Shown: one piece after another, positions 9,667 through 53,221 of the stretch
Position numbering within the stretch: position 1 is the first letter of the stretch
How the letters are laid out: every line of letters starts with the position of its first letter
From: a virus
Taxonomy: Duplodnaviria > Caudoviricetes
DNA length: 55,024 nucleotides
Direction: 5' to 3' (one strand)
Virus record (IMG/VR): IMGVR_UViG_3300031920_000406
Span: 1-55,024 of that record
Notes under the pieces: generated by a model
Told to the model about the DNA's origin: nothing
What the model saw: the letters and a program-made list of their open reading frames with translations, nothing else
Database searches by the model: none
Position numbers and translations under genes: made by a program

Positions 9667-10431
9667 ATGAACTGGTTACCGGAAATGTGGACGTACTCTG
9701 AATACGTTTCGCACAGATTTATGAGTCGCTATCAAAAAGGAAAATATTACGAGCCTTTGATTGATAGAAATGCATTTTTATACGTTCCATTTGTAAACGA
9801 CAAGGATTTTGCGTTTTTGGCAGAAACGTCATACAAAATTATTATTGCATTTTCAGGTCCCAAGAATCTCCCTGCAATGATAAACAATTTTGATGCATAC
9901 CCTCTCGGTGAAGGAATGATACTTGACGGATTCTACCGTTCATGGAAATATTACAAGGATGCCTTTGACCGATTCTTCCGAGACAATTTTGATGGCCATG
10001 GGAAGGATTTTTCCGGTATCAAGAAAGAGTTGCTGATTACCGGCCATAGTCGCGGTGGCGCCCTGGCTAGTTTGTGTGCCAGGCACTTCTCAAAAAACCG
10101 GCAGAAACCGAACACTTGTTACACGTTTGGTGCACCGCCTCAGGGAACTCAAGAATATGTTGATCAATATAACAAACTTACCGTCCTTAATATTCGAGGT
10201 GTCAACGGCTCTGACATTGTGCCAACAATGTTGTTGCCGCGGAGCCTAGGGTTTCTTCATCAAAATCATTTGCACCATTTTCCACAGCCGCGTTGGCACC
10301 GGTGGTTTCATAAAATCCGTGACCACTATTATTCAAATTACACAAAAGCGATACTAAAATATTGCCGTAAGGTAGGAGACCGTGACGGCGTTGCACAAAT
10401 GAAGCGTGTTCTGAAAAGAGCACGACCGTAA
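9667..10431 (+). CDS. Class 3 lipase (alpha/beta hydrolase)
   Basis: ITGHSRGGALA nucleophile elbow; YTFGAP; DIVP; late DH catalytic His. Confidence 0.85.
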   Translation: MNWLPEMWTYSEYVSHRFMSRYQKGKYYEPLIDRNAFLYVPFVNDKDFAFLAETSYKIIIAFSGPKNLPAMINNFDAYPLGEGMILDGFYRSWKYYKDAFDRFFRDNFDGHGKDFSGIKKELLITGHSRGGALASLCARHFSKNRQKPNTCYTFGAPPQGTQEYVDQYNKLTVLNIRGVNGSDIVPTMLLPRSLGFLHQNHLHHFPQPRWHRWFHKIRDHYYSNYTKAILKYCRKVGDRDGVAQMKRVLKRARP

Positions 10432-24181: not shown

Positions 24182-24388
24182 TTAATATTTCCTTTTCAAT
24201 TCAATACAGCTTATTGCAAGCTTCATTTTCAAAGTTTTGATATCATCACAATGTTCAATATATTCTATGAGATCATTCGCTTTTTTTTCATCACATATTC
24301 TATCAGTTACCCAAATATTATCGACCTCGATAATACACGCAAAGGGATATTTTTCAGTCCCGGGTATTTTGATCAATTCTGTTTTCAT
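24182..24388 (-). CDS. Hypothetical early protein
   Basis: ORF downstream of strong promoter. Confidence 0.55.
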   Translation of the reverse strand: MKTELIKIPGTEKYPFACIIEVDNIWVTDRICDEKKANDLIEYIEHCDDIKTLKMKLAISCIELKRKY

Positions 24389-24574
24389 TATAGTTCTTTT
24401 ATCTGATTACAATAAAAAACAACTGCCTCTATTTGTGTCGGAAATGACTGTACTAGTATTTCGTCAAGCTGGTTATACTCAGGATAGATTTTTACCATTT
24501 TCCCAGAAATTTCAATTGTTATTTCATTTATCGTTGTTTTCACTTTATTTTCCTTTGTTTATTGTTATACTAAT

Positions 24575-24603
24575 AATATACAACAATCCGCCACAAAAGT
24601 CAA
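24575..24603 (-). promoter_or_regulatory. Sigma70 promoter for leftward early genes
   Basis: Minus strand TTGACT, 17 bp spacer, TATATT. Confidence 0.8.
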
Positions 24604-24672
24604 CAGTTATTTTCATTATTTTTAACCTAATAATTTAATATTTTTATAGCAAATATGAGCACCAGTTTTTTT

Positions 24673-25221
24673 TTACCTTTCGAAAAGGGAAACAGGGGCC
24701 GACCCCACAACAGGACAGAAAAAAGAGAAACCCGGGACCGGAACAAGCAGAGAGGAACCCGGCACGACACGCCACGATGAAACACCCCCGACGCAGGGCA
24801 GCGAGGCAACAGAGGCAGACGGCAAGAAAACGAAAACAGGAACGCCACGGCGGGCCGCTGCAAAGGCACACAGCCACGAGCCCGAACGGATGAACGACGG
24901 GGAACGGGGAAAAACGAACAGGCAGGAGCAGGCGGCAACGAGCCGGAGAGAGCGGGCACGGAGGGCGGCAGCAGAGCGCACGCCGGAAACTGAAAACAAC
25001 CGAAGAGGAAGCCTGGCAGCAGCAGCAGCAGAGCGGATGGTGAGATCGAGGCCAGAGGGACAACAACCGACCGCAAAAGAACCACCGGCAGCAACAACAG
25101 AAGGAGCCAAAGCGGAAAGCACCGCACGGGACGCGAGAAGGCTGGAAGACGGAAGGCCCCGCCGGGAACCCGAAAAAGCCACAACGGAGCAGAAAGAAGC
25201 GGAAGACCAAAAAGAAGCCAC
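24673..25221 (-). CDS. SLOG / DprA-Smf-like Rossmann-fold protein encoded by a nearly adenine-free gene (probable GTG start)
   Basis: VAFSGSR, VGCCPSGLD, ALRARS..LV, SGSW..AFAAARRGVPVFVF; only 9 T on plus strand across 24681-25310. Confidence 0.7.
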   Translation of the reverse strand: MASFWSSASFCSVVAFSGSRRGLPSSSLLASRAVLSALAPSVVAAGGSFAVGCCPSGLDLTIRSAAAAARLPLRLFSVSGVRSAAALRARSLRLVAACSCLFVFPRSPSFIRSGSWLCAFAAARRGVPVFVFLPSASVASLPCVGGVSSWRVVPGSSLLVPVPGFSFFCPVVGSAPVSLFER

Positions 25222-25998
25222 AAGGAACCCCCAGGAAAAAGGAAACAACGCACCCAAAAAACGACCACCAAAAAAAAAGAAAAAACAAAAAAAAAGAAAA
25301 ACAACGCCGGAATCTGACTGCATTGATTCTGAGTGTTTGGGATTTTTTGCGATAGAGCCAGGACGGCGGAATATTCTTGCTACCAATTCGCGGTTTTCAT
25401 TTTTTTTTTTGAAATCGATTAAGGTTGGGGCAAAAAAAAATTAAAACTGCGAGCAAAACGGCGAACGATCCGCTACGCTATTCGGACTGGGGAAAATTTG
25501 TTTGGGGGGTTAGTTTTTCCAGGGCGTGAAGCCTACCTGCGTGTCCCCCCAATTTTTCCCACTTCCAAAGGAAAAGAGAGCCGTCCAAACCGCCATTTCC
25601 GGCTTGTTTTTTTTTGTTTTTCTTCCTCCCAATAATATTTTTTGCCCCCTGGGGGGTATGGGGGGAATACGATATAAACTCGCGAGATTGTCACGCGTTC
25701 CTTGTAGTGGTTTTGTAATATTGCTTGGACGTTGAAACCGCAGGAGTATAAAAACAGATGCCTATTGAATCCTTATGCCGGAATATAACTTGATATACTC
25801 TAAAAAGCGCTACCTTCACTGCCGAGGAATAGCGCCGTTTCACCGCTAAGCGTGAGTTGTCCAGGGATGGCAAATCTCTCTCGGCGTTTAGTCTATTAGG
25901 TGTTTAGCGCGGCCGGATGCTTAGATTGTTTTTACTACCCTATACTTTTTTGCGCAAGGCAGGCGGAGGGAATTTATTGTGTTTCTGTTACGGGAACT

Positions 25999-26014
25999 TG
26001 TTTCACGTGAAACA
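25999..26014. promoter_or_regulatory. parS centromere-like site
   Basis: Perfect palindrome TGTTTCACGTGAAACA equals the canonical bacterial parS consensus; intergenic. Confidence 0.85.
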
Positions 26015-26072
26015 CCGACTGGAAGGTAGCCCGGAGCTACGCCGACACCCTCTTTTTTGAGGGGGGTGCGCC

Positions 26073-26360
26073 CTAAAGCACTATACGCTTAATAACGTCC
26101 TCAAATCCATCTGCCACTCCATTTAGTTCAAACACTTTACACTCCAGTTTTTTAAACAACACCCCCTTCACCTTTCGCCCTCGTTCTTCATCCTTTTTTT
26201 CATCCGGATTTAATTCTTCACAAACATCCGACAGTCTATCTCTCAATCTATCCAATAACTCTTTAAACCTTGTTTCCGCAGCATCCAGCCCAGTTAAGAT
26301 AAACTCGGATTCTCTGACCTTTGTTTTCTCAGGCTCTTGAACAACCGTTTTTTCTTCCAT
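26073..26360 (-). CDS. Hypothetical coiled-coil protein
   Basis: AAGGA RBS then MEEKTV. Confidence 0.55.
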   Translation of the reverse strand: MEEKTVVQEPEKTKVRESEFILTGLDAAETRFKELLDRLRDRLSDVCEELNPDEKKDEERGRKVKGVLFKKLECKVFELNGVADGFEDVIKRIVL

Positions 26361-26577
26361 CTTATTATATCCTTTCTCAAAAAATTGAAGATTTTGCATG
26401 TTAACCTAATTATTTTTTCCTATCTTATTTAATTTTACCAGCTCTCCACTTTTCTAATCTATATACTTCTCTGACTATCCTTTTACTATTATAATTTTTT
26501 ACCGATTGGTTTTTACTATTTCACTATTACACCTCAACCCCTAGAAGATCCCACCGAAGTTTCTCATAAGCATCTAA

Positions 26578-26858: not shown

Positions 26859-27404
26859 TTATATTCCTGGTCGATTATCTTGTAAGATCCCTTTCTCTGA
26901 TATCCACCCTACATGATGTGATGGGTTCCCTCTTTGCACGGAGAAAGGGTTTACGGGTGATTTTACTACCGCACCTTCTTCGATCATCGAATATCGACCT
27001 AAGTCACAGCCCGATACGATCACCGCGTTTGCTCCTATCGTGCTGCCCTTACCGACGCGAACCCCAATGAATGCGTGGCGTTTGTTGATCATCGCCCGCG
27101 CATATCGCACATTAGTCAAACAGGACCCGCTTCCCATAAATACCCCTTCTTTGAGTATACATTCCTCTGGGATGGATACAAAGTTTTGAATTCTGCAATT
27201 GTCCCCAATTTCACTTCCTGGACCGACGTATACATTTTGGCCGATTATTACATTTGCGCCGATTATACAGTATTCACCAATATGTGTTCCTGCCCAAATC
27301 TTTGTTCCTGGACCTATAGAACAGTCTTTGTCTACGTGTGCACTATTTTCTATCATTACATCCTGCCACTGGTTTCGATTATTTTCTTTCACGAAATCTT
27401 CCAT
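26859..27404 (-). CDS. Hexapeptide-repeat (LbH) sugar N-acetyltransferase, WbpD-like
   Basis: IGPGTKIW..THI; IGQNVYV; CRIQNFVSI; GSTIGANAVIV; GNP. Confidence 0.88.
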   Translation of the reverse strand: MEDFVKENNRNQWQDVMIENSAHVDKDCSIGPGTKIWAGTHIGEYCIIGANVIIGQNVYVGPGSEIGDNCRIQNFVSIPEECILKEGVFMGSGSCLTNVRYARAMINKRHAFIGVRVGKGSTIGANAVIVSGCDLGRYSMIEEGAVVKSPVNPFSVQRGNPSHHVGWISEKGILQDNRPGI

Positions 27405-49531: not shown

Positions 49532-52500
49532 ATGAACGCTTTCTATCTTGATGTGCAACTTAAATCTCAAAACTCATCCCCCGATCCTGCCATTACAACT
49601 GATGAAGATGTCCGAATTATTAATTCCCTACGACGCAACGCTCCACTTAAAAAACTTAACTCTGATCAAATTAATACCCGCTCTATTATTATTATGGGAG
49701 AAGAACCCACTTCTAAACTCTCTATCCATCCACAACGACTCATTAATAATAAACAGATCAATACCCTCGCCGATATTGCTAAAAAATTACCCGGCGCACC
49801 CATGCTTGTAGGACATCGACAGGATAAAACACCATGGGGCCGTACATTTAAAGCACAAGTAATTGATAAAACACCAGGTTACTCCGGAGCAGTTGTCAAA
49901 GAAGCTTACTTCTTTCTCAATGACGATGAAGGTAACGCTATCGCTCGAAAAATCGATGCAGGCATATGGGCAGAAGGCTCTATCTCTTATTGGTTTCAAG
50001 AAGCACGATGCTCTATTTGCCATACACCAATGGCCTCTATGTCTTTTCTCGGCATTAACGCTAAAATAGCACGATGTAACCATATTCTTGGCAAAAAAGA
50101 CCAAGATACTGGACAAATATGCTACTGGTATCCCTACAATATCGTAAAAATCGGCGAAACATCATATGTATTCGCCGGCGCTTATTCCAAAACACGATCC
50201 TTTCTCGATACTAACAACGCCGATTATCTAAACGAGCTCTATTCCCCTGACCAAATTACCGCCGCCACTGAACTCGAATCACAACTTCTCGACGCTGGCC
50301 TCGATATTAAAAACATCCCACCCCAAATTGATGTCACACCATCACTCGATACAATTCATTCTAACACACCTCCACCATCATTAACACTTGTCGTTTCCAC
50401 TCCTACAAAAGGACCTATCAATGATACACCTACCCAAAACACACAACAACCCCCCTCACCCGATTCAACACCCAATCCCCCAATCACACATCAACAAACA
50501 CTCACCACAGAAAAAACAAAAAACAACCCACCCATCGAAGGCGAAGCTACCGACCCCCCAATCACTTCCAATGATTCATCCGATGATACTCTCCAACAAC
50601 ATACAACCCTTCCCGACCCCAACTCAAATGCTACAACTCTATCCCCACCTTCACCCGGAGAACAACTCGACCGAGGCGCCGGTAAAGGCAAAGGCGGAAA
50701 ACCACAAGGAGACGGAGGCGCATCCAAATGTGTATGCCCTAAATGCGGATACGAAACACCACACATAAAAGGCACACCATGTACTGAATCGAAATGCCCC
50801 AAATGTCATACCACTCTCCAAGGTAAAAACATGGATAATATTCAACCCACAACACAACCAAATTCTCAAATACCACCCCCTATTCCCACCAATAATTCAC
50901 CTAAAACCACCTTAACCGCTACTAATCTGGACAATCTACCTAGCAATAATCATACCGACCAAACTGCTACTAATCCACCCAAACCCACAATACCAATCGA
51001 AAAAAATTCGGCAAATCACCATATAATCGAAAAAAATTCGATTTCCCTAAATCCCAATAAACCCACTATTGACAATGTGGAAGACCCACTATCAGCCGCT
51101 CTTGCTTTTATGGACCGCGTCTCAGACTCCTTGACCCCTGAAGATCTATCAGATCTTACCTCTATTTTTAATACACCAGATTTTGATATTGATGAGCGCG
51201 AAACGTTTCTTAGAACAGCTTTAAAATCTGCATCTGTTGAAATTCTTAACGAGGCTCTTGATCTCCTTGATCGTATTTCTGATTCTTCATTGTCTCCACC
51301 TTTACTTATTTTTCAATGTGTCGAATGTTCCACCCATTTTGATGTTCGTCCTGACGCTTTTTGTCCTCATTGTGGCGCACAGGTAATACCCTTGGAAGAT
51401 TACCGTGTTGTACTCTTTAACCCTGTCGGACCTATTAAGCCTACAAAATCAGGTATTTGCAATAATGAGTTTTTTAAAAAAGAAGACCTTGTCAATTTGC
51501 CCACTGCGGTTTACTTTGTTGAGCCTAAGTACGACGGTGTTTGGATGGAACTTCATCGTTTAGGTGACAAGGTACGTTTTTACACTGCCGAAGGCAACGA
51601 ATATTCTGAAAAGTTTCCTGCACTTATGGCGGAAGCCCTGAAGATTAAAGCTACTTCCTATATTATCGCCGGTGAACTTACTCGATGGCATAATCGCCGC
51701 AGGCTTGGTCATACCGATGTTGCAGCTTATTTACACACCAAAGCAGAAACTTATGATGATAAAGACTTTAAATATAAGCCTTTTGATCTTATGTTGCTAT
51801 TAGGCCGCGCTGTTACCGATCAGCCTCTTGATGCACGCCGTCGCAAGCTCGATAGTACTTTTAAATGGGGTAAACAAATTCATCCAACCGCACATCGTGT
51901 TGTTAAACATGTATATGCTGATTCTGCGATTCTTTCTACCATTAACGACCGAGCTACTCGCGAGGGTGTTATGATTAAAGATATTCATAGTCTCTACTCA
52001 CGTCGCGATCAAAAGTCTCTTTACAAGTGGAAGCAGCAATCTGAACTGGATGTTCGTGTCAAGTCTGTTATGGTCAACACTGGTGGTGGTTATATTTATA
52101 CATGTGAGGTAGGTCGAGGTACTAATGTTCAAGTTATTGGAGCTACTTATACCACTACCATTAAAGCTTTAATAGGCAATATTCTTCAGGTTTCAGTTGA
52201 TCATGTTCGTTATGACAAGCCCAAAAATAACTACTCCTGGTTTGCTCCGAAGGTCGTAGCTTTACGGGCTGACAAAAAACTACCCGATCCTCTTTCCGCT
52301 CTCCGTGCCCTTGCCCTTGTAAAGGGTAGTGAACCTAAGAGTAGACACATTATTACACTTACCGAGGTTTTGCCTCGTTTAAAGCGAGCTGCTCTTGATC
52401 TTGAACTCTATCTTATCGGAAGCCTTGTGGAAGAGGGACTTACTACTCACGATATTGACATTCTTAGTCGTGTTCCTCTTGGTGAAAACGACGTTCGTGC

Positions 52501-53221
52501 TTTGACTGACGCTCTTGGGATGGATCTTGCCTTTTATCTTGATATTACAATAGATCAAGATGGCCCCGCTGGTCCCAGCATTCCTTTGATTACTGATATG
52601 AAGAACAATGATGCTATGTGGAAGTATTCCAATATGTTCGTCCTCCAGGAACACGGATGGGGGAAGAAGGTCCATTATGATCTTAGATTTGGAGCTCCAC
52701 GGACAAAACGCATGTGGGGATGGACTTGTTTTTCAAAACCCTCATTCACTGATGGAGGTGCTAAGACACGTTGTCAGGAGAAAAAATATCATGACCCTAA
52801 ATGGATGGATTTTGACAAAAAGACTATTCCTCCTGGGCAGCCTGGAAACCCCACTAAAAATCTAAATGCTTGGATCACTAAAATTGATACTGGAACATAC
52901 GAGTACATTTGCCGCAAGCCTAATTTTCTTGAGCTCGTTTTCCATGGCACTTTGATGGATGGTCGCTATCTTTGGCGTCACATTGAAGTCAAACACCAGT
53001 CACAAAAGACTATTGATGCTCACCATATTCCTGGCGATGAAGTTGATACTAAGACAGACAAAATCTGGGTTATGTGGAAACCTAAGGACCAGGAGCCAGG
53101 TAAGGCTATTCATAAGCTTGCTTATAAGTTTATTGACGATTGTTTCATGTTCTGGGAAACCGACGAAGTTGATACTATTCTTGAACATCTTGAAAATATT
53201 GTTTTCGACTCTACTACTTAG
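49532..53221 (+). CDS. Multidomain protein: prohead-protease-like + zinc ribbons + ATP-dependent DNA ligase + NTase + LigD phosphoesterase-like
   Basis: EGSIS...CSICH; EPKYDG (motif I), EGVMIK (IV), KWK (V); LIGSL...HDIDIL; FVLQEH...HYDLRF...IDTGTYE. Confidence 0.8.
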   Translation: MNAFYLDVQLKSQNSSPDPAITTDEDVRIINSLRRNAPLKKLNSDQINTRSIIIMGEEPTSKLSIHPQRLINNKQINTLADIAKKLPGAPMLVGHRQDKTPWGRTFKAQVIDKTPGYSGAVVKEAYFFLNDDEGNAIARKIDAGIWAEGSISYWFQEARCSICHTPMASMSFLGINAKIARCNHILGKKDQDTGQICYWYPYNIVKIGETSYVFAGAYSKTRSFLDTNNADYLNELYSPDQITAATELESQLLDAGLDIKNIPPQIDVTPSLDTIHSNTPPPSLTLVVSTPTKGPINDTPTQNTQQPPSPDSTPNPPITHQQTLTTEKTKNNPPIEGEATDPPITSNDSSDDTLQQHTTLPDPNSNATTLSPPSPGEQLDRGAGKGKGGKPQGDGGASKCVCPKCGYETPHIKGTPCTESKCPKCHTTLQGKNMDNIQPTTQPNSQIPPPIPTNNSPKTTLTATNLDNLPSNNHTDQTATNPPKPTIPIEKNSANHHIIEKNSISLNPNKPTIDNVEDPLSAALAFMDRVSDSLTPEDLSDLTSIFNTPDFDIDERETFLRTALKSASVEILNEALDLLDRISDSSLSPPLLIFQCVECSTHFDVRPDAFCPHCGAQVIPLEDYRVVLFNPVGPIKPTKSGICNNEFFKKEDLVNLPTAVYFVEPKYDGVWMELHRLGDKVRFYTAEGNEYSEKFPALMAEALKIKATSYIIAGELTRWHNRRRLGHTDVAAYLHTKAETYDDKDFKYKPFDLMLLLGRAVTDQPLDARRRKLDSTFKWGKQIHPTAHRVVKHVYADSAILSTINDRATREGVMIKDIHSLYSRRDQKSLYKWKQQSELDVRVKSVMVNTGGGYIYTCEVGRGTNVQVIGATYTTTIKALIGNILQVSVDHVRYDKPKNNYSWFAPKVVALRADKKLPDPLSALRALALVKGSEPKSRHIITLTEVLPRLKRAALDLELYLIGSLVEEGLTTHDIDILSRVPLGENDVRALTDALGMDLAFYLDITIDQDGPAGPSIPLITDMKNNDAMWKYSNMFVLQEHGWGKKVHYDLRFGAPRTKRMWGWTCFSKPSFTDGGAKTRCQEKKYHDPKWMDFDKKTIPPGQPGNPTKNLNAWITKIDTGTYEYICRKPNFLELVFHGTLMDGRYLWRHIEVKHQSQKTIDAHHIPGDEVDTKTDKIWVMWKPKDQEPGKAIHKLAYKFIDDCFMFWETDEVDTILEHLENIVFDSTT

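Follow-up and report, generated by a model that had tools for sequence, protein, structure and literature searches.

An adenine-depleted gene for a predicted DprA-like SLOG protein in an uncultured marine-sediment phage and avoidance of the dinucleotide GA in its relatives

According to those passages of the literature that bear most directly on the locus described here, proteins of the DprA family and ShosA bind single-stranded DNA (ssDNA) and engage RecA (PMC11961720; PMC12961424), ShosA being made of a SAM domain, which spans residues 1-94, and a Rossmann domain, which spans residues 95-313 (PMC11961720). In viruses, DUF4326 is fused to SLOG, Macro or NADAR domains and is predicted to take part in ADP-ribose processing (Iyer et al. 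2022, PMC9503650). On the side of host immunity, CmdT of the CmdTAC system acts on single-stranded RNA, where it ADP-ribosylates the adenine of GA dinucleotides at N6, and it blocks translation, double-stranded RNA being left unmodified; its authors also noted that Shine-Dalgarno sequences contain GA (PMC11618068). Here we analyze a gene of an uncultured marine-sediment phage that has lost nearly all its adenines and whose product is predicted to be DprA-like. It lies on the minus strand of a 55,024-nt stretch of DNA, referred to below as the window, which is the 55-kb IMG/VR virus record IMGVR_UViG_3300031920_000406, estimated to be 62% complete.

On the plus strand, the 630 nt from 24681 to 25310 comprise 255 A, 196 G, 170 C and only 9 T, the count given in the initial annotation of this DNA. 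In 300-nt windows, a single region of the whole window (24657-25343) has 15 T or fewer, the average being 98.6 T per 300 nt, and the other bases are always at least 18 per 300 nt. The GC content is 0.58-0.62 inside the tract versus 0.27-0.38 just below it, with an AT skew of up to 0.90. The features that define the gene are as follows.

24681-25310, minus strand as sense: adenine-poor tract, 9 A in 630 nt of presumed transcript, unique in the window by base counts.
24673-25221, minus strand: coding sequence of a predicted DprA-like SLOG protein of 182 aa, from GTG at 25221 to TAA at 24675-24673, based on periodicity, homologs, start match, AlphaFold2 and Foldseek.
25323, minus strand: in-frame ATG, a possible alternative start that would give 216 aa.
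25045-25047, minus strand: GAT codon for the invariant Asp of the G-x-D motif (GCCPSGLD; D93), the sole GA inside the tract.

Positions 24300-26300 are matched with 0 differences by a Logan contig (28,690 nt) that comes from a separate assembly, possibly of the same source sample, and a diverged variant of the tract is present in two other marine-sediment or cold-seep samples from other studies. The tract is thus real DNA and not an assembly artefact. Repeat checks ruled out a simple or tandem repeat, and a search for long direct repeats of the tract gave none.

Because A (T on the complement) occurs in each of the three stop codons, an A-free strand and its T-free complement are open in all six frames, and the list of open reading frames (ORFs) indeed gives, across the tract, three minus-strand ORFs that overlap and a single ORF on the plus strand. 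These frames are open by construction and an ORF alone is therefore not evidence of a gene. A period of three bases runs through the tract (p=4.9e-4 by chi-square test), with a Fourier signal of 4.5 versus 2.5-6.8 in four real genes. Its most A/T-biased phase, at coordinates ≡1 mod 3, is the wobble position of the minus frame chosen in the initial annotation, and also that of the plus frame 24890-25444, so that periodicity alone cannot choose the strand. A phmmer search of 1.84 billion representatives with the minus-frame protein returned 37 homologs at E<=1e-3, including 25 at <=1e-10 and 5 at <=1e-30. Some of these proteins, for instance P0024 (1.1e-11), have a normal composition with many K, E, D and N. 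In the variant found in the two other samples, 26 of the 35 differences listed over 24750-25027 fall at the wobble phase; one of the 35 creates a T and three remove one. Moreover, all three antisense frames are interrupted in 15 of 16 moderately depleted relatives, with 1-9 stops per frame, the exception (L037) having one antisense frame open. A gene on the plus strand is ruled out by these antisense stops, and the homologs as well as a confident fold belong to the minus frame. As for the start, GTG 25221 agrees with the called start of the closest relative, P0002, and with the GTG that follows TGGGGG in another relative, L004; it is the likely one. Altogether, it is close to certain that minus strand 24673-25221 is a real protein-coding gene, and the frame and start first proposed for it are borne out. 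Two further searches were less informative: no relatives came from a viral contig collection, either with the ORF or with alignment A2 as query, and the ESM Atlas gave leads that were all below 0.9, one of them a cluster with 18% DprA members.

The protein read from GTG 25221 is devoid of K, N, Q, H, Y and internal M and contains the motifs FSGSR, VGCCPSGLD, RARS and SGSW, as had been pointed out previously. Its alphabet is reduced to essentially ten amino acids, and codon third positions are T in 96 cases, C in 66, G in 45 and A in 3. The AlphaFold2 model, computed with a 38-row alignment, is of high confidence (pLDDT 93.5, pTM 0.89) and shows the alternating strand-helix pattern of a single Rossmann domain, a three-layer alpha/beta fold with a parallel central sheet. 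Foldseek against the PDB ranks ShosA first (8zva, E 7e-5, TMq 0.59), and the top set consists of ShosA and four DprA entries, including those of H. pylori (4ljk, E 2.9e-4, TMq 0.55), R. palustris (3maj) and S. pneumoniae (3uqz, TMq 0.56). YpsA ranks lower, and the cyclic-oligoadenylate binders of CARF type, Cam1 (8t65) and Csm6 (9w3v), are weaker still as matches (TMq 0.34-0.41). Over the 38 members of the family, Pfam identifies DprA (PF02481) in four, with a best E of 6.1e-8, Nuc_deoxyrib_tr in two, and YAcAr (2.4e-6), LDcluster4 and cpYpsA in one each; a profile search against PDB sequences gave nothing meaningful. G52, G91, D93 and G148 are among the residues invariant in the 38 sequences, and R54, R124 and S147 are nearly so. 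These are the glycine and polar motifs expected after strand 1 and after strand 3 or 4, where they would line the nucleotide pocket; we presume that they map onto the DprA motifs. A DprA-like fold is therefore predicted with great confidence. The model supports, at the level of fold and superfamily, the earlier assignment of the product as a DprA-like member of the SLOG Rossmann superfamily of about 180 aa.

Acidic residues are few in most of this family. At most three D+E are found in 28 of the 38 family cores (exactly one in 20), and four members have 10-16, hence the fold does not require their loss. A natural family of about 160-180 residues that is confidently predicted to fold from essentially ten amino acids, adenine being barred from its message, is unusual in terms of both protein evolution and codon usage. 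In the window gene the sole GA of the tract encodes the invariant D93; a second one, in a GAA two codons ahead of the stop, lies just outside the tract.

The comparison with DprA/Smf (PF02481) and ShosA thus reveals a common Rossmann-type core (best structures 8zva, 4ljk, 3maj and 3uqz), an alignment of the G-x-R loop after strand 1 and of the G-x-D and S-G-[ST] motifs, and a common linkage to recombination genes. Unlike them, the window protein has about 180 aa, carries no SAM or other extra domain and lies below Pfam detection. We rejected the possibility that it is the ShosA of a ShosTA pair: it is a single domain of 182 aa devoid of SAM, and no toxin gene occurs in the two upstream neighbours scanned (no match to a ShosT-like phosphoribosyltransferase in 26073-26399 and 26859-27404, the small downstream ORFs not being scanned). 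A parallel can also be drawn with the viral SLOG/DUF4326/Macro/NADAR modules (PMC9503650), since the window protein is a stand-alone viral member of the SLOG superfamily encoded next to terminase-portal genes, and in one relative, L022, a DUF4326 gene stands directly upstream in the same GA-free operon. On the other hand, the viral SLOG proteins of that survey are, in the parts of it that bear on them, mainly of the YpsA-like clade, whereas the best matches here are DprA-like, and those parts mention no purge at the nucleotide level (PMC9503650). The window gene itself has no DUF4326, Macro or NADAR gene adjoining it; next to it are small ORFs and the gene for a 108-aa protein without family assignment.

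To check whether homologs share the depletion, a check that the initial annotation had called for, relatives were collected in one scan of metagenome contigs, and all 32 loci obtained were scored. In 31 of them the coding strand of the gene contains less A than the rest of its own locus (0.9-20% versus 14-35%). Homologs thus share the depletion, and three further loci from a genome collection are GA-poor as well. The gene has 0.9% A in L003, 2.2% in L005, and 8-13%, up to about 20%, in others. The exception is L034 (18.0 versus 16.7), and the gap is below 7 points in four more loci (L017, L021, L023 and L025). The depletion affects all three codon positions, and even where the phage has a GC content of 38-42%, that of the gene is about 59-64%. 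L025 is a distant relative reached via the portal protein (44% identity); its A depletion is weak (20% versus 26%) and its 489-nt match has 4 GA, which is still low (obs/exp 0.15). It was the one distant relative obtained with the portal query, and the 496-aa neighbour used as query gave none.

Between the window gene and L003, 77 codons are identical, 67 differ synonymously and 67 non-synonymously, with 120 third-position differences, and A is still absent in both. Since synonymous sites are near saturation yet A remains absent, selection has acted over a long time, and the skew does not stem from a single mutational event. In the protein tree, the window gene groups with L004 (99/96), then with L003 (98/97), then with L005 and L006 (91/91), and moderately depleted genes form the larger set within which this clade is nested; three rows were flagged as heterogeneous in composition, and composition bias may distort the tree. 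Near-total loss of A in the window clade looks like a derived state. In the sister gene, L004 862-1389, the 5' half and leader are A-free, yet the whole gene has 8% A and 9 GA, mostly in the 3' half. This lineage seems to have regained some A there, and selection on it may have been relaxed or changed. Overall, the comparison of these genes leaves us with little doubt that selection acts at the nucleotide level against A or GA.

The avoided unit is best seen in the relatives that retain enough adenine. Dinucleotides were counted in 14 non-redundant relatives with 8-20% A, the expectation being derived from each gene's own base composition. GA is observed 35 times for about 206 expected (obs/exp 0.17), as against 508 CA (1.71), 205 AA (1.61) and 185 AG (0.91). 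Its avoidance extends over every phase: 25 observed for 74.8 expected at codon positions 1-2, 7 for 60.0 at positions 2-3 and 3 for 63.8 at the codon boundary, the last two phases being independent of amino-acid content. The codons behave likewise, with GGA used for 2 of 158 Gly and CGA plus AGA for 5 of 112 Arg, while GCA is used for 77 of 275 Ala and CCA for 35 of 166 Pro, and 26 ACA and 22 AAA are retained. GA is normal in the neighbouring genes of the same loci, with a pooled obs/exp between 0.89 and 1.14 for 12 of the 13 loci and 0.69 for the remaining one; the 78 ORFs of the window have a median of 7.5 GA per 100 nt. As sense-strand TC is not depleted (1.17), the avoidance of GA is strand-specific. 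Separate data from the genome collection agree with this: L035, L036 and L037 each have exactly one GA in 396-468 nt, at the relative position of the invariant Asp codon in each match, for 5.1-5.3 per 100 nt in their surroundings. These three loci are on contigs of 8-40 kb whose bins carry the label Fibrobacterota; as phage contigs are often mis-binned, this is no more than a hint of the host. In the window, 12 A occur between the 5' edge of the tract and the final codon ahead of the stop, of which 8 are in CA, 2 in GA and 2 in AA. Judged from these counts, the pressure is GA-specific in most of the family, and the window clade is purged of nearly every A, A being kept almost only after C.

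The purge is not confined to the homolog. GA-poor tracts measure about 400-1300 nt and contain 1-3 GA in 20 of 24 loci, the other four being L004 (9 GA), L005 (7), L030 (7) and L025 (5). They stop 0-155 nt from where the match ends and reach, in several lineages, up to 824 nt upstream, where extra small genes with zero GA encode proteins without Asp or Glu. The operon of L022 comprises genes of 80 and 68 aa, the DUF4326 gene (E 2.5e-27) and the DprA-like gene, with 8-13 nt between them. Two small genes precede the homolog in L013, L015 and L017, and one in L020. The long A-free leader of L003 and L004 contains, in a different frame, the coding sequence of a small protein of weak similarity; this frame ends at the only TAG or TAA of the tract. 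The window and L005 have no such partner. The extent of the tract would correspond to that of the transcript. The small genes ahead of the homolog (41-93 aa) are located at L022 2398-3129, L013 805-1256, L020 5833-6036, L003 258-485, L004 572-850 and L008 34-156. Their products have a weak common C-terminal motif, F-Q-R ... F-V-V-x-P, and no Pfam match. The DUF4326 gene of L022 (2857-3129) has zero GA and encodes a His at the CHG motif, where we take typical members to have an Asp. This suggests that the purge of GA has reshaped a second protein family.

Removal of target sites has precedents: phages avoid restriction sites, and engineered mRNAs without ACA resist MazF. In these cases too, the sequence needed by the attacking enzyme is removed. 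The present case differs in that avoidance is strand-specific, limited to one gene or small operon, directed at a dinucleotide or a whole nucleotide, and strong enough to reshape the amino-acid alphabet. The purge appears to protect one transcript and not the genome.

We propose that the message lacks the site needed by a host immune effector, so that the protein would still be made when other messages are disabled. A counter-measure translated after such an effector has fired would need a GA-free message. That the tract serves to evade an attack directed at A or GA is, in our opinion, probable. The candidate attacker would be an mRNA ADP-ribosyltransferase of CmdT type, by match to its published specificity: the adenine of GA in single-stranded RNA is precisely the avoided unit, and the window gene has GGGGG at the place where a Shine-Dalgarno sequence contains GA (PMC11618068). 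CmdT would be the proposed attacker and not a relative of the window protein, and its link to these phages is a match of specificity; we thus name a CmdT-like enzyme specifically with more doubt than assurance. The features concerned are the following.

25222-25310, minus strand: A-free, U-rich 5' leader of about 89 nt, with a T-run followed by GGTGGT and next by TTTTTCC, in common with L003, L004 and L005.
25228-25232, minus strand: GGGGG, Shine-Dalgarno-like and without A, 6 nt before the GTG; TGGGGG-N6-GTG also occurs in L004.

The GGGGG would presumably act as a Shine-Dalgarno-like element. Leader length varies from about 45 to 300 nt across the relatives.

The protein itself could be a counter-measure that acts on single-stranded nucleic acid. 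One option is a recombination mediator of DprA/ShosA type working with RecE/RecT, or with RecA or RecT; another is a SLOG protein that binds adducts of ADP-ribose or acts on them as an enzyme, in keeping with the DUF4326 neighbour in L022, which fits the viral SLOG-DUF4326-Macro-NADAR modules with a predicted role in ADP-ribose processing (PMC9503650). The adjacency of RecE/RecT in three lineages is indirect evidence that the product could bind ssDNA and load RecA, as DprA proper does. Taken as a whole, an attack-proof mRNA whose product would serve in counter-defence or repair is the best explanation that we can offer, and we consider the chances for and against it evenly balanced. The broader view of modification-proof phage operons, purged of GA or of all A so that neither an ADP-ribosyltransferase directed at mRNA nor a comparable A-directed effector could silence them, that encode SLOG/DprA-like, DUF4326 and small partner proteins able to reverse or circumvent the damage is a speculative extension that we hold to be rather unlikely.

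Several observations weigh against the explanation by an attack-proof mRNA. The purpose assigned to the tract relies on sequence statistics and on a match to one published specificity, all from metagenomic data. Since GA on the sense strand is TC on the template, a target at the DNA level is also possible. TA is low as well in the 14 relatives (102, obs/exp 0.46), with the gene's own composition as the only reference. The nearest relatives of the window gene show no GA-specific avoidance among their few A (7 GA for 12 A in L005; 9 GA in L004, obs/exp 0.82), and the pressure on the window clade may differ from that on the family. The residual GA are not significantly hidden in RNA structure: their mean unpaired probability is 0.164 versus 0.233 in dinucleotide shuffles (p=0.14), and this shielding, at first striking, turned out with the shuffle control to be mostly an effect of composition. 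The window protein matches no Pfam family at E<=0.1 and no PHROG. Finally, we know of no SLOG protein of the DprA clade that is an enzyme.

What else could keep such a gene free of A or GA? The template strand could be the protected molecule, kept free of T (of TC in the family) in the face of a thymidine-directed ADP-ribosylation of ssDNA of DarT2 type that blocks RNA polymerase, the DprA-like product then helping repair by loading recombinase. The equivalence of sense GA and template TC speaks for this idea, and the passages on DarT specificity report modification, in ssDNA, of the second T of TNTC (Thermus) or of TTT/TCT (EPEC), as well as a requirement for RecF-mediated recombination to tolerate the lesion (PMC7003065). 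It would also suit the ssDNA binding and RecA engagement of the DprA family and ShosA (PMC11961720; PMC12961424) and the linkage of the gene to RecE/RecT in three lineages. However, all GA are avoided (35 versus ~206) and not just GANA, although TNTC alone would leave most GA neutral, and the 22 AAA codons, TTT on the template, do not fit an enzyme of TTT type. The template is, furthermore, the least exposed single strand in transcription. We therefore consider protection at the DNA level improbable, and we rate no higher an evasion of endoribonucleases that prefer A, such as the HEPN effectors of type III and VI CRISPR systems or the ACA-cutting MazF. An A-free RNA would offer no site to any A-requiring nuclease, which suits the A-free clade; some Cas13b are reported, in the relevant part of one study, to prefer cutting at A, with an A-A preference (PMC13291976), and the weak structural matches to Cam1 and Csm6 cited above go in the same direction. 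The 14 relatives nevertheless tolerate ACA (26), AA (1.61) and CA (1.71) and strongly avoid GA only; our search brought up no nuclease for which strict specificity for GA is documented, and a GA preference of one Cas13b was not confirmed in the passages that bear on it.

The initial annotation had favoured expression under attack, and this general idea fits the data. Its proposed drivers, namely ATP depletion, ACA-cutting MazF and cleavage of tRNA-Lys, are not supported as drivers for the family as a whole, given that the 14 relatives keep 8-20% A, 26 ACA and 22 AAA and have almost no GA. Transcription without ATP, or translation without tRNA-Lys and the other tRNAs that read A-containing codons, would suit the window gene, whose elongation needs almost no ATP and which has no Lys, Asn, Gln, His or Tyr codons. 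Nonetheless, AAA Lys codons persist in the relatives, avoidance is strongest at codon boundaries (3 versus 63.8), which a tRNA effect cannot explain, and the purge includes the untranslated leader; such a shortage is a very unlikely cause. Least credible of all is the view that the tract is no functional feature and instead reflects the remains of a one-off adenine hypermutation (e.g. through a retroelement), a non-coding element (an origin, for instance), an error of assembly or a plus-strand gene. The six frames open by construction and the common wobble position of plus frame 24890-25444, which keeps periodicity from choosing the strand, leave some room for it. Against it stand the near-saturated synonymous sites still devoid of A, the reproduction of the stretch by a separate assembly and its variants in other samples, and the antisense stops in 15 of 16 moderately depleted relatives together with the homologs and confident fold of the minus frame. 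A diversity-generating retroelement in particular was rejected, as the record, 62% complete, has no match to the reverse transcriptase domain PF00078 at E<=0.1 and no long direct repeat of the tract.

A loss of GA that is family-wide and independent of phase points to a specific molecular enemy, and the explanation by an attack-proof mRNA bears on the way in which phages respond to defences that shut down every message together. If phages do carry the modification-proof operons considered above, a GA-free tract on one strand would mark counter-defence genes by sequence alone, and CmdT-like pressure would be widespread in nature; should the signature apply more broadly, scans for such tracts could reveal these genes without any homology. 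An open-access literature search found no description of adenine-free or GA-free genes of this kind.

Several other elements border the tract.

24682-24708, minus strand: terminator-like hairpin GGGGTCGGCCCC that overlaps the last codons and has a U-rich tail, from a consensus scan only.
25315-25323, minus strand: 9-mer ATGCAGTCA at the 5' edge of the tract, identical to a 9-mer upstream of the homolog in L012/L024 and L028.
24575-24603, minus strand: sigma-70-like promoter match TTGACT-17-TATATT (consensus 10/12), between the gene and the small minus-strand genes after it.

The last of these is probably the early promoter just downstream of the gene that the initial annotation mentioned. It is a consensus match only, at 24603-24575 on the minus strand. 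As for ATGCAGTCA, it does not behave as a genome-wide promoter motif, one exact copy being present in the window without enrichment; it reads M-Q-S, and several homologs begin with MQ.

The upstream stretch 25311-26046 is non-coding, contains G- and C-runs and has no Rfam match; the Rfam scan gave zero hits at gathering score and chance-level matches below it. In the two-sample variant, this side is more conserved than the gene, with 9 differences in 433 nt (25228-25660) versus 51 in 384 nt. A role in regulation, packaging or replication is possible for this stretch. No clear similarity to the other loci was found there except one weak match in L005. An AT-rich inverted repeat at 25388-25452, with 21-nt arms that are 90% complementary and 23 nt apart, is located about 70 nt upstream of the tract.

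The gene sits between a block of terminase, portal and structural genes and a block of small genes with RecE and RecT. In the window and in L012/L024 the order is terminase, portal, a ~270-aa protein, the DprA-like gene, small A-rich genes, RecE and RecT, and in L013, L014 and L019 RecE-RecT follow the gene. The window encodes a portal protein, a major head protein, RecE and RecT. No tRNA genes were found in it, and a cultured-phage collection gave no DNA match and no protein match for the two family members queried. Elsewhere in the window are a PAPS-reductase-domain protein (1438-2592), a class 3 lipase-domain protein (9667-10431) and a protein of 1229 aa that contains the domain of an ATP-dependent DNA ligase (49532-53221). 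Lastly, a perfect 14-bp palindrome, GTTTCACGTGAAAC, stands upstream of the GA-poor tract at 26000-26013 of the window and again in a second phage lineage (L013 506-519, L015 3308-3321, L018 305-318 and L019 743-756), where it may be an operator or a hairpin.

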